NCBI GenBank assembly: GCA_048938855.1
Contig: JBHLLT010000001.1
Span: 384,124-448,123 of the forward strand
Length of the DNA stretch: 64,000 nucleotides
Direction: 5' to 3'
Origin: Promethearchaeota archaeon
GTDB taxonomy: Archaea > Asgardarchaeota > Lokiarchaeia > Sigyniarchaeales > SOKP01
In this document: one piece after another, positions 51,861 through 56,131 of the stretch
Layout of the letters: each line of letters opens with the position of its first letter
Numbering within the stretch: position 1 is the first letter of the stretch
Notes under the pieces: generated by a model
Told to the model about the DNA's origin: nothing
Databases searched by the model: none
What the model saw: the letters and a program-made list of their open reading frames with translations, nothing else
Position numbers and translations under genes: made by a program

Positions 51861-52538
51861 ATGCAAGTAATAAGTAAATTCGCTACAATTTTAATAAAGT
51901 ATATAATGAATATAGAAAATAAAATGAAACACTTAGACCAGTTAAAAAAAAAGGGAGTGAATGAAATGAGGGAAATTTTAGAAGATTTTACAAGTCCTGA
52001 CAAAATATTTCACCTCTCTATTGTAATGAGTGAAGATATTGAAATTGAGCTATTCAGAAAATGGGTTTCTTCTTTTGGGGAAAGTTACATCAAATCTGTA
52101 GGCGTTGAGCCTTATAGTAAAAATGTAGAAATTGATGGAAAAAACATAAAGTTAGTATTGCGATTATGTTCTTTAGAAGCAAGATTTTTTAGTATTGTTG
52201 AAGGTGTTATGAGAAATTTGCCATTAATTTTACTCTATAATGTCAGCAATAACAAAACTTTAAACAAATTACTTGAGAATCAATTTATCAAAAATCTAAA
52301 ACAAGATGTACCAATTTTATTAGTAGGAAATAAATCAACTTTAGAACAAAATAGAGAGGTTTCAAAAGAACAAATAGAAATGCTAAAAGAACAGTACAAT
52401 ATTTTAGCTTCTATGGAGATATCTTTAAACACAGGAGAAAATGTAGAAGAAATGTTTAGGACAACAGCAAAAATTCTATTGAAAGAATGTGAGGAAAGAA
52501 AGAAAAAAAAGAAAGGAAGAAAGAAAAGAAAGAAATAA
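51861..52538 (+). CDS. Degenerate Ras-like pseudo-GTPase with a polybasic C-terminus (likely start ATG at 51966)
   Basis: SVGVE..SK.VEIDGK.IKL, PILLVGNKS, REVS and EIS..TGENVEEMF are retained; there is no GxxxxGKS/T or DxxG. Confidence 0.75.
   Translation: MQVISKFATILIKYIMNIENKMKHLDQLKKKGVNEMREILEDFTSPDKIFHLSIVMSEDIEIELFRKWVSSFGESYIKSVGVEPYSKNVEIDGKNIKLVLRLCSLEARFFSIVEGVMRNLPLILLYNVSNNKTLNKLLENQFIKNLKQDVPILLVGNKSTLEQNREVSKEQIEMLKEQYNILASMEISLNTGENVEEMFRTTAKILLKECEERKKKKKGRKKRKK
51866..51895 (+). repeat. 30-bp direct repeat, copy 1
   Basis: AGTAATAAGTAAATTCGCTACAATTTTAAT. Confidence 0.85.
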
Positions 52539-52599
52539 ATAGAATTTATAAAAAAATATCTTGTTTTGAATCCTTCTCCTCCCTAATTGAATTTTTTAT

Positions 52600-52629
52600 A
52601 GTAATAAGTAAATTCGCTATAATTTTAAT
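52600..52629 (+). repeat. 30-bp direct repeat, copy 2 (29/30 identical to copy 1)
   Basis: AGTAATAAGTAAATTCGCTATAATTTTAAT. Confidence 0.85.
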
Positions 52630-53018
52630 TAGTACAAAAAAGGATAAACTGATGTGTCAGAATTATTAAAATGTAAAAATTTGACATAAATTAATGCCCA
52701 TTTTTTTATCTCATATAATATATATAATGGTTGGGAGAAAATGTTCCACCAGAATATATTCATTCATCTAGTGTTAAAATTTGAATTTTTTATCTGAAAT
52801 CAAAAATTGATCCTTTTATAGTAATAGATTTTAATAGTAAATAATTACTCAATTTTTTTCGTCAATTTTTTTTGTCGACTACATTTGAGTGATCACATAC
52901 ATCGGATTAACATTGATCAACCAACACATTTAAATATAAGAAATACTAATTAAAATTTAAATACTCTTTAAAAAAAAGGTTAAAAAAATAATTATTAATA
53001 AAGTGGAGGAAAAATAAA

Positions 53019-53225
53019 ATGGCTGCATTTGCATGGAGTCCACTACGGGCTCTAATGAAAAAAGCTGGAGCGGAAATTGTAAGTCGAGCCGCAGTTGATA
53101 AATTAATGGATTATTTAGAAGAATATGCTAAGAGTTTAACTGGTTGTGCGCTTGATATTGCTAAACACTCCGGTAGAAAGAAAGTTACCGCTGCAGATAT
53201 GAAAATCGCTATTGGGTTAATTTAA
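53019..53225 (+). CDS. Archaeal histone (HMf family), tail-less
   Basis: P.RALMKKAGAE.VS..A...L...LEE......A...AKHSGRKKV...D. GGAGG ribosome-binding site upstream. Confidence 0.95.
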   Translation: MAAFAWSPLRALMKKAGAEIVSRAAVDKLMDYLEEYAKSLTGCALDIAKHSGRKKVTAADMKIAIGLI

Positions 53226-53368
53226 AACCAAAATTAAGGTTTAAATTTATGCGATTTTATTATTTTCAGCTCTTATTTTTTTTTTATTTTTAAATTTGTT
53301 CAAAACAGCTTCTATTGAGTTTAGATTGGATTTTGTTTCCCTTCTTCTTCTTTGTTCATAATTAAAGA

Positions 53369-53635
53369 CTATTTTTCTGCTGTATAGTCTTTTAAAAAGA
53401 TTTTTCCATTATTACTTTCAAGAATGGACAAAGTTCCATTTTTATCTTTTCCTTCCAACACCAGTATCTCATCTTCAGCTTCTATTAGAATTCTCTTTAA
53501 TGTTCCACAACCATATTCTTTTACAAATTTCTCAGAGATATGTAGAACTGCTGCACTTATTGCAGCTATTAGTTTATCACCTTTATCTTCTGAATCAAGG
53601 GGGAGGCCTTCTTTAGTAAAATTAAAAGATTTCAT
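53369..53635 (-). CDS. Roadblock/LAMTOR2-like domain protein (short)
   Basis: T.EGLPL.S, IAAISAAVL..SE....E...G.LKRILIE.E. Confidence 0.65.
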   Translation of the reverse strand: MKSFNFTKEGLPLDSEDKGDKLIAAISAAVLHISEKFVKEYGCGTLKRILIEAEDEILVLEGKDKNGTLSILESNNGKIFLKDYTAEK

Positions 53636-53874
53636 AAATTACTCAAATAGTAATTATTTTTTTTACATATTTATCCTTTTTCTTTAGAATCGGGACTTTT
53701 GAAGAAAAAGTGATTTTTATATTTGTAAAGGCATATACATTTATGTATAGATTTAGAGATATCACATTCAGTAAAGATGATAAATATAAGAAATAAATTT
53801 TCTACTTCTTCTATTTTATTACAAAATCATCCTACTTAATTGATTTAAATATGGTTTGAAGTGTAATTTTAAAT

Positions 53875-54057
53875 ATGTTGTCAAATATCAAATGTGATAT
53901 ATGTGGAGACTTTTTGAATGCCAATTTTATAAATCGTGAGGGTTGCTCAGAGTGTACACAACACTATTGTTCTAAGTGTGGTTATCAATATGAAACAGGA
54001 TTTAGATATAATTTATTAATCAAACAATTTATTAGATATGTAAGATTCAACCCTTAA
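53875..54057 (+). CDS. Small Cys-rich zinc-ribbon protein
   Basis: CDIC, CSEC and CSKCGY in 60 aa. Confidence 0.45.
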   Translation: MLSNIKCDICGDFLNANFINREGCSECTQHYCSKCGYQYETGFRYNLLIKQFIRYVRFNP

Positions 54058-54088
54058 GTTACTAGTTATTATTTAAAAAAAATAAGGA

Positions 54089-54178
54089 CAATTATAATCC
54101 CAAAAAACCTTTGCTCGGTTGTCCTTAAACGTCTCCTTTTTATACGCTTAATTCATTCTTTATTGGGATTTACAATTA
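54089..54178 (-). promoter_or_regulatory. Eukaryote-type SECIS element
   Basis: AUGA-A-UUAAGCGU-AU-AAAAA-GGAG-ACGUUUAA-G-GA-C, closed by a lower helix UAAUUGUAAAUCCCAA/UUGGGAUUAUAAUUG. Lies at the 3' end of a gene with an in-frame UGA. Confidence 0.75.
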
Positions 54179-54692
54179 ATTTATCAATAACATCAGTCAT
54201 CATTTCAATTGAAGGTCTATCTGTTTTATCATTTCCAATATATTTCCAAACGATCTTCTCATCTTTATTAATTAGAAATTTGCTTGGAACCGCTTGTTTA
54301 ATTTTATAATCTTTTCCTCCTCCAGGTGCGTACCAATAAACATCGTATAATTTTGCTATTTTAGCACCTCTATCAGAAATCATATCAACATGAAAATTGT
54401 TTTCTTCTTTAAATTTACTCAAAAGTCTTACACTGTCGCTTGCAATAGATATTAATTTAATATTTCTTTTTTCAAATTCAGAGATTTTCTCTGTTAACAA
54501 CGCTAAATGTTTTTTACAGTGACTTCACCAATTTCCTCGGAAAAAGTCGATCATAACTCCATCATATGTTTTTAGAAGATCAGTTAGATTTATAGAATTC
54601 TCATAAATATCTTTTGTATCAATTAATGGTGCTGTTGTATTTAGATCCAAACCTTCAGGTCTTGGAGGTTCTTCTGGGTTAGCATTTATCAT
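54153..54692 (-). CDS. Peroxiredoxin-like (AhpC/TSA) selenoprotein, 179 aa, Sec at codon 56 (UxxC)
   Basis: ATG at 54692 ...DFFRGNW-TGA(54525-54527)-SHCKKHL, in frame with track ORF 54153..54500 (SD....A..Y.V, P..FLI....I.W.Y, DRP). Confidence 0.9.
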
Positions 54693-54797
54693 TTGAATAG
54701 CCTTTTTTTAGTGTAAATTAATGAATTTAGCATTTTAAACATATGTCTATTGATAAATAAATAGTTATTTTAAAGTAAGAAGATTTGGTAGAATTTC

Positions 54798-55334
54798 TTA
54801 CTCACTTGAAAACCTATCGAAGAGAATTTCTGTCATTACATTAAAAGTTTTTTCAACATTAGCCCCGGTTTTGGATGAAAGTTCCAAAAAGGATGCTAGA
54901 TTATACTTTTTTGTTGCTAATATCCCTTCCTCTCTGGGGATTACCCTAAATTCATCAAGATCTGCTTTTGAGCCAATTAACATAATCGGAATATCACCTG
55001 TGTGTTCTCTAATCACTTGGGTCCAATCAGGAAGATGATTTAATGATGATTGATTAGTGATGTCATATAAAAAAAGAGCACCATTAGCTCCTTTACAATA
55101 CTGGGAGAGTAAGAATCGAAATCTTTCTTCTCCTCCAAAATCCCATATTTGTAGCTTTACTTTTTTATTATTAAAGGTTGTTGTTTTGGAATAGAAATCT
55201 ACTCCAATTGTTAACTTTAAATCTTCTTGAAAAAACCCCGAAATATATCTTATTGTGAGTGATGTTTTACCCACAGAAGCATCACCTAACATTAGAATTT
55301 TAAACGTATAATCGTATAGTGTCAATTTAATCAA
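54798..55334 (-). CDS. Rab-like small GTPase
   Basis: GDASVGKT, TIGVDF, WDFGGEERF, GSKAD, LSSKTG. Confidence 0.93.
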   Translation of the reverse strand: MIKLTLYDYTFKILMLGDASVGKTSLTIRYISGFFQEDLKLTIGVDFYSKTTTFNNKKVKLQIWDFGGEERFRFLLSQYCKGANGALFLYDITNQSSLNHLPDWTQVIREHTGDIPIMLIGSKADLDEFRVIPREEGILATKKYNLASFLELSSKTGANVEKTFNVMTEILFDRFSSE

Positions 55335-55489
55335 TAAATTTATATTTTTAGGTCATAAATTCAATAGGAATTTTGATTGGTTAAAGTCCAGTATAAGGGA
55401 GATTAAATTTTGATTTATAATATAAATATACCTAATAGTAATTAATTTTTATTTAATTTAAAAATAATAATTTCATCATAAAGCAGAAT

Positions 55490-56131
55490 TTATATAACCA
55501 TTACTAAGATATTAAAAAGTGAATGAGCAATAGAATTGGGAATTATTGAATAATTAAAGTATATATAAATTGAAGATAGTAAAAGTCCAAAAGTAAAGTA
55601 ATACCCAAAAAAAGTTATAATTGTTGAGAACGGGACTAAAAAAGGTGGAACATGATATAAAGCAAAAATGATTGAGGAAATAAGAATTGAGTATATTGAT
55701 TTCAATTTTAGATTAAACTTTTTAATAAGAAATCCCCTAAAAAAAGCTTCTTCACATGGCCCTGTTATAATGATTTGTAAAATAATTAGGATAGACATTT
55801 GAATTACATCAGGTTGAACAGGTGTAGTATCTATGATTCCCTCTTGAGCAGATTCAACAAATTCACTACCAAGTAAATTCCTAATAATAAAATCTCGAAA
55901 AAAAAGGATAAGATAACCACTTAAGAAAAAGAAGATTATACCGAAACATAGCCCAGATATGATTTTTCTAACCAATCTGTCATTCATTTGAAAACCCATC
56001 TCATTAATTTCAGTCATAAATGATTTCTTCTTCAAATTACTCAAAAATAAAGCTGGTAAAATAACAAAAAGAAGTTCAAAAAATATTAATCCAATTAAAA
56101 TCCATGGATTTTCTCCTAATTGTACAGTCAT
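55490..56131 (-). CDS. CPBP/Abi (Rce1-like) intramembrane glutamic protease
   Basis: EEAFFRG, FALYH, H...N motifs. Confidence 0.9.
   Translation of the reverse strand: MTVQLGENPWILIGLIFFELLFVILPALFLSNLKKKSFMTEINEMGFQMNDRLVRKIISGLCFGIIFFFLSGYLILFFRDFIIRNLLGSEFVESAQEGIIDTTPVQPDVIQMSILIILQIIITGPCEEAFFRGFLIKKFNLKLKSIYSILISSIIFALYHVPPFLVPFSTIITFFGYYFTFGLLLSSIYIYFNYSIIPNSIAHSLFNILVMVI

Follow-up and report, generated by a model that had tools for sequence, protein, structure and literature searches.

A probable Prx-like selenoprotein gene of a Lokiarchaeia-type Asgard archaeon, with its stop codon in the core of a lokiSECIS element

Does a TGA in the middle of an Asgard redoxin frame end the gene, or is it read as selenocysteine (Sec)? 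The question arises on the minus strand of the window analyzed here, a stretch of 64,000 nucleotides (C34:384124-448123) from a 3.95 Mb genome assembly with 30% GC and 93 contigs. A sequence-only reading of this DNA had proposed one frame running from an ATG at 54692 to a TGA at 54153 through a single TGA at 54525-54527, and both its coordinates and its translation are reproduced by our analysis. The frame comprises 179 codons, from ATG 54692-54690 to the last sense codon GAA at 54158-54156 (coding sequence 54156-54692), followed by the TGA stop codon at 54153-54155. With the internal TGA translated as U the product has 179 residues and contains the motif ...VMIDFFRGNW-U-SHCKKHL..., in which U56 (54525-54527) and Cys59 (TGT, 54516-54518) occupy the first and second positions of a UxxC redox box; Cys59 is the only cysteine in the translation. 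Under translation table 11 the same stretch is divided into a 115-residue ORF with a TTG start (54153-54500) and a 55-residue ORF (54525-54692), which are on the same strand and in frame with each other, the TGA at 54525-54527 being all that separates them.

The answer that we reach is that the locus is very probably one gene, encoding a 179-residue, single-Sec UxxC protein of the PrxL family in a Lokiarchaeia-type Asgard archaeon, and that UGA56 would be decoded with the help of a lokiSECIS element. The assignment of the full coding sequence draws on its translation, a domain match, orthologs and an AlphaFold2 model. A single AhpC-TSA domain (Pfam PF00578; E-value 1.3e-21, 77 bits against a cut-off of 26) covers residues 19-149 and so lies on both sides of the TGA. 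In a comparison with four orthologs, the differences fall mostly at third codon positions, in codons 1-55 and codons 57-175 alike. This third-position bias both upstream and downstream of the TGA indicates that both halves of the frame are coding.

The gene lies among a NurA gene, a gene for an Rce1-like protease and a set of genes (window 51861-55334) that together make up a typical Asgard 'eukaryotic signature' neighborhood: Ras-family GTPase genes at 54798-55334 (minus strand) and 51861-52538 (plus strand), a Roadblock/LC7-like gene at 53369-53635 (minus strand) and an archaeal histone gene at 53019-53225 (plus strand). Oligo-T tracts terminate archaeal transcription, and a run of eight T residues downstream of the SECIS (54075-54082, minus strand) is likely to mark the end of the PrxL transcript. 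Converging on this 3' end is a 60-residue, Cys-rich ORF on the plus strand (53875-54057) with a zinc-ribbon-like CxxC...CxxC...CxxC pattern, for which a Pfam search returned no match.

We sought orthologs of the gene by scanning GTDB species genomes, which yielded 27 Asgard PrxL loci with 67-87% identity over residues 1-179, the closest of them in Promethearchaeota (Loki-type) metagenome-assembled genomes (MAGs). The site of interest is readable in 26 of these loci, the remaining one (L044) running into a contig end. In every readable locus the codon that follows FFRGxW is TGA. Three codons further on there is either TGT or TGC, as in the gene studied here, or a second TGA in UxxU paralogs (L018, L021, L023 and L043). 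Three relatives carry such a double-Sec UxxU paralog, with a lokiSECIS of its own, ~700 nt 3' of the UxxC gene (L018:2031-2797, L021:2037-2772 and L023:2037-2811); a tblastn search of the present genome for a second, UxxU PrxL returned the UxxC copy only. One ortholog with the TGA and a perfect lokiSECIS, on the 8.1-kb contig DATKTW010000172.1 (L035), is filed under an actinobacterial MAG, 'Candidatus Nanopelagicaceae bacterium'; the contig is in all likelihood Asgard DNA that was wrongly binned with bacterial sequences.

More distant homologs reveal which residue the UGA replaces. An exhaustive phmmer search was reduced to the best 150 representatives at 50% identity, 131 of which span the site. 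The redox box reads CxxC in 121 of these 131 sequences, SxxC in four and CxxS in one, with W at the first position in the other five, which are likely to be further miscalls of TGA. The CxxC homologs share the context F-[YF]-R-G-x-W-C-x-x-C. Since 121 of the 131 have CxxC at the site, it is Cys that aligns with the UGA, as the sequence-only reading had anticipated.

The genome also appears equipped to insert Sec. Lokiarchaeota are reported to encode Sec machinery and Prx-like selenoproteins, as the sequence-only reading had pointed out; the PrxL selenoproteins and their SECIS are described for this lineage in PMC4989117 and PMC11227280. In the present assembly a tRNA-Sec with anticodon TCA (C49:41348-41440) lies directly upstream of a SepSecS gene (C49:41507-42808; 464 bits against a cut-off of 225), the start of which follows the tRNA gene by 67 nt. 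Two tandem selD genes (C34:253707-255755) score above their cut-off and have one in-frame TGA each; multiple selD copies are mentioned for Loki and Thor genomes (PMC11227280). An EFSec/SelB-like gene (C49:35767-36657), 5 kb from the tRNA-Sec, reaches 232 bits against a cut-off of 242, and a PSTK-like gene on contig C1 reaches 133 bits against 290; both scores are below curated cut-offs of models trained on other lineages, and we regard the two genes as plausible orthologs. The EFSec/SelB-like gene, tRNA-Sec and SepSecS form a loose Sec-machinery cluster (C49:35767-42808). Contamination of the MAG is put at 7%; the TGA-containing selD genes are nevertheless on the window's own contig.

Decoding of UGA as Sec calls attention to the RNA downstream of the gene. 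The lokiSECIS has been defined as an AUGA preceding a 9-bp stem, an 11-nt apical loop and a GA (or AA) following the stem; the loop has an A-rich stretch in its first five bases and closes with an ultraconserved G, before which there is usually an A (PMC4989117). All of these features are present on the minus strand at 54122-54156, where pattern scan, alignment and covariation converge on an Asgard type I eSECIS-like element. The AUGA (54156-54153) is followed by the 5' stem AUUAAGCGU (54152-54144), an A-rich 11-nt loop AUAAAAAGGAG that ends in AG (54143-54133), the 3' stem ACGUUUAAG (54132-54124) and the GA (54123-54122). Eight of the nine stem positions are standard pairs and the ninth, at the base, is an A.G mismatch. 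The SECIS lies ~370 nt downstream of the Sec codon. The element overlaps the end of the gene: the UGA stop codon is itself the UGA of the AUGA core (a stop-to-AUGA offset of 0), with A54156 of the last sense codon supplying the first base. This arrangement is found in three of 26 gene copies with a detected SECIS (the present gene, L019 and L041), and it recurs after one VhuD gene of the present genome.

Alignment of 24 PrxL-associated elements shows the AUGA, the GA, three loop A residues and the final loop G to be invariant. Within the stem, eight of the nine pairs have changed on both sides, and 90.7% of all cells in the alignment are paired. The bottom position is unpaired in 11 of the 24 elements; the other eight pairs are well kept, and seven of them covary. 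None of 500 shuffles reached the observed covariation score, and sliding the register reduces pairing to 27-61%. Single-sequence folding of the 3' region gives an unremarkable z-score of -0.9, and we therefore base the SECIS call on motif and covariation rather than on stability.

The same pattern recurs elsewhere in the genome. A whole-genome scan gave 16 matches, nine with an A-rich loop, and the strictest form of the pattern gave eight matches, compared with none in each of 20 local shuffles. The nine A-rich matches consist of these eight and one more with a loop ending in UG, and all nine stand directly behind TGA-containing frames: three HdrA-VhuD pairs, one HdrA gene, PrxL, a gene for a UU protein and three small membrane-protein genes. 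At C70:123373-125000 there are three tandem lokiSECIS elements, each preceded by one or two ORFs of ~70 residues, for which two transmembrane helices are predicted and which contain one in-frame TGA, set in an A-U-G-type motif. At C49:284803-285279 (L050:504-980, plus strand) a 158-codon frame carries a tandem TGA-TGA (...VVHAD-U-U-ADVMK...); a lokiSECIS whose 3' core is AA comes within ~10 nt after it. Pfam returned no match to this frame.

In public databases the family appears in two forms, which bears out the expectation that gene callers would truncate it. One consists of C-terminal pieces of 100-119 residues from MAGs of Lokiarchaeota, Promethearchaeota or Thorarchaeota, which go by the name 'redoxin domain-containing protein' (about 112-119 residues) or 'peroxiredoxin family protein'. 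The other is full-length and has Trp in place of Sec (WSHC, or WxxW in UxxU proteins), and some of these entries also read past the terminal TGA (...NPNKEW...). Because every locus with readable DNA has TGA at the site, we infer that the W entries are miscalls of the code 4 type (TGA as Trp) on short contigs.

These data bear on three ways of accounting for the TGA without selenocysteine. A Cys codon may have been misread during sequencing or assembly, or may recently have mutated to a stop, the gene then being an ordinary CxxC redoxin or a pseudogene; TGA is indeed one base away from TGT and TGC, and distant homologs have Cys at this place. Yet the TGA recurs at the same codon in 26 independently assembled Asgard loci, which excludes a read error or a private mutation, and the gene is followed by a covarying SECIS and is under coding constraint on both sides of the TGA, so that we give this explanation practically no credence. 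Translation of the TGA as one of the standard amino acids, such as Trp under genetic codes 4 and 25, would agree with the WSHC of some public gene calls and with those full-length homologs that also continue through the terminal TGA. We consider it extremely unlikely: TGA ends 215 of the 1634 stop-to-stop frames of at least 300 codons in this genome and is thus otherwise a normal stop, the homologs align Cys rather than Trp with it, the GTDB ortholog loci have TGA wherever their DNA is readable, and the genome encodes a Sec pathway with a tRNA-Sec that has the matching anticodon TCA. Termination at UGA56, leaving the 115-residue C-terminal ORF from TTG 54500, the 55-residue peptide, or both, is what standard gene calling delivers and what most public records contain. 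The C-terminal piece, however, would have neither the redox box nor the initial beta strands of the fold, conservation of the N-terminal part shows the same third-position bias, a single Pfam domain spans the TGA, and the SECIS would be left without a role; we judge this outcome very improbable.

None of the three outcomes that the sequence-only reading had named as refuting it (missing Sec machinery, a misread TGT or TGC codon, a residue other than Cys in homologs) was borne out. Within the selenoprotein reading, which we favor over these three rivals, there are two candidates for the attacking residue of the active site, Sec56 and Cys59. The AlphaFold2 model, computed from a 40-sequence alignment (pLDDT 92, pTM 0.88), has a Prx/BCP-like thioredoxin fold and places U56 immediately before helix 57-68, the classical active-site position of thioredoxin folds. 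Its best match in the PDB is the archaeal Bcp4 (3hjp; TM-scores 0.79/0.89), followed by the BCP/PrxQ structures 4gqf, 2ywn and 2cx3 and then by other peroxiredoxins and ResA. In the alignment to the A. pernix BCP (2cx3), the active-site Ser corresponds to U56 and the peroxidatic Cys to C59. From this standpoint the protein could be a true peroxide-reducing Prx in which Cys59 attacks and Sec56 has an auxiliary or resolving part, and the fact that its best structural matches are BCP/PrxQ peroxidases speaks for such a chemistry. The canonical Prx motif P-x3-T/S-x2-C is, however, replaced by R52, U56 and C59, the box W-U-S-H-C (residues 55-59) being of the C/U-x-x-C/U type where peroxiredoxins have T/S-x-x-C. 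Arg122 of 2cx3 (in 'KRAV'), which from Prx spacing we take to be the catalytic Arg, aligns with Q133; this Gln is invariant among the 20 close PrxL homologs that were aligned, and across the CxxC family the position is variable, with Arg in one of about 100 members. In CxxC enzymes of the thioredoxin fold the nucleophile is at the N-terminal position of the box, which is where Sec lies in PrxL and where the first Cys of ResA aligns. Attack by Cys59 thus seems to us an improbable, though not negligible, variant. Since the Pro, Thr and Arg of canonical peroxiredoxins are missing, the predicted protein is better described as a CxxC-type Prx-like redoxin with an attacking Sec than as a classical Prx. 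The nearly invariant R52 and R159 could play a role.

The resulting picture of how the gene might work is as follows. The eukaryote-like SECIS ~370 nt beyond UGA56 would serve as the decoding signal, recruiting an EFSec-like factor with Sec-tRNA(Sec) to that codon. UGA180 would most likely still be read as a stop, as an arriving ribosome should already have melted the SECIS around it. In the finished protein the selenolate of Sec56 would attack the oxidized substrate, a peroxide or a disulfide, after which Cys59, one helix turn further on, would resolve the intermediate by forming a selenenylsulfide, and the enzyme would be regenerated by a reductant of the thioredoxin type.

The SECIS may be part of a larger RNA structure. 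The unconstrained minimum free energy (MFE) fold of 54072-54180 has three arms: a closing helix, the SECIS hairpin and a small 3' hairpin. The whole fold, delimited from MFE folds and a helix search, spans 54096-54170 on the minus strand. Its closing helix pairs AAUCCCAA (54170-54163), within codons N175-P176-N177, with UUGGGAUU (54103-54096), and its 3' hairpin is AACC-GAGCAAA-GGUU (54120-54106). Unconstrained folding gives the same three arms for about 14 of the 24 PrxL elements. The helix search finds a closing helix in most orthologs, built on a CCC/GGG core with differing flanks (for example CCCAA/UUGGG, CCCGUA/UACGGG, CCCUUAA/UUAAGGG and CCCCUAU/GUAGGGG), and the 3' hairpin is conserved among PrxL genes as ACC-UUGCNAA-GGU. 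Six of the nine SECIS elements of this genome, from four gene families and differing in sequence, adopt the three-armed layout in their MFE folds. RNAalifold, run on a wide MAFFT alignment, recovered the upper stem alone because the flanks are out of register, and for this reason the closing helix and the 3' hairpin were assessed from folds of the individual sequences and from the helix search, a kind of support weaker than a formal covariation test. An Rfam search of 53000-55500 in E-value mode returned no SECIS family and only sub-threshold snoRNA-like matches, of which a weak match to snoR21 (54096-54170) simply reflects the closing helix of the SECIS.

We tentatively suggest, as a possibility that we would not rate as high as an even chance, that the SECIS is one arm of a conserved three-armed element in which the last codons of the gene make the closing helix and the kink-turn core holds the UGA stop. 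The conserved 3' hairpin could then dock a putative Asgard SECIS-binding factor, and a stop codon placed there would tie termination to the melting of the SECIS. The published descriptions of lokiSECIS and type I eSECIS-like elements that we found mention a lower stem and make no mention of the 3' hairpin; they cover the protein and do not cover the three-armed RNA element.

How new, then, is the gene? Two Loki PrxL genes, a UxxC and a UxxU type, were reported by Mariotti et al. 2016 (PMC4989117), neither with further Cys and each followed by a lokiSECIS, and the family was described there as uncharacterized. Since then, 43.2% of the Asgard genomes that use Sec have been found to encode Prx-like selenoproteins, for the most part with type I eSECIS-like elements (Huang et al. 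2024, PMC11227280). The gene studied here appears to be a straightforward ortholog of the single-Sec UxxC protein, PrxL.2 of PMC4989117 and the 'Prx-like protein' of PMC11227280, and is in that sense already known; PrxL.1 and PrxL.2 were compared through their published description, and orthology is drawn from the 67-87% identity to Promethearchaeota MAG loci with the same TGA and SECIS. The 'hidden selenoprotein' originally proposed is thus supported, and it is mis-annotated in public databases; what has to be amended is its novelty, as the family and its SECIS had been published for this lineage. Knowledge of Asgard selenoproteomes is left unchanged. What the locus still offers is a correction of the annotation, protein databases either lacking or misstating the redox-active residue of this widespread Asgard protein, and a three-armed SECIS whose core holds a stop codon. 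The gene adds a further clean case of the eukaryote-like SECIS system in those archaea that are most closely related to eukaryotes, and its compact UGA and SECIS cassette of ~540 nt could serve as a test construct.

Comparison with known systems places the gene squarely within Asgard PrxL, with which it shares the AhpC/TSA fold, a UxxC box with Sec in first place, the absence of Cys outside the box, a lokiSECIS directly after the coding sequence and an Asgard host. Nothing substantial sets it apart, the differences being a UGA stop within the AUGA core and the absence of the UxxU paralog present in some relatives. Its SECIS likewise corresponds to the lokiSECIS or type I eSECIS-like element in its AUGA, 9-position stem, 11-nt loop with an A-rich start and AG end, and GA; it differs from the element as described in forming part of a three-armed fold, whose closing helix extends into the final codons of the gene and whose 3' hairpin is conserved. 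Like the bacterial and eukaryotic Prx-like UxxC selenoproteins and SelL (UxxU), the protein has Sec in place of the first Cys of a thioredoxin-type box on a Prx-like fold (PMC4989117). SECIS type and lineage differ, however, and no NCBIfam model reaches its cut-off; the best, NF040769 ('SelL-related redox protein'), scores 49.8 bits against 120, which leaves the gene outside that model. Among proteins of known structure, BCP/PrxQ (3hjp, 2cx3 and 2ywn) are closest both in fold (TM-scores 0.7-0.9) and in sequence (E-value 7.6e-14), with C59 in the place of the peroxidatic Cys, but PrxL has Sec56 for Thr/Ser, R52 for the Pro four residues upstream and Q133 for the Arg of 2cx3. ResA/TlpA proteins (4nmu and 1st9) share the fold, and the ResA box W-C-K-P-C matches W-U-S-H-C position by position in the alignment. 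ResA, though, is membrane-anchored, extracytoplasmic and all-Cys, whereas PrxL carries Sec and, as read by eye from its sequence, begins with a Pro/Glu-rich segment that has no evident N-terminal hydrophobic anchor.
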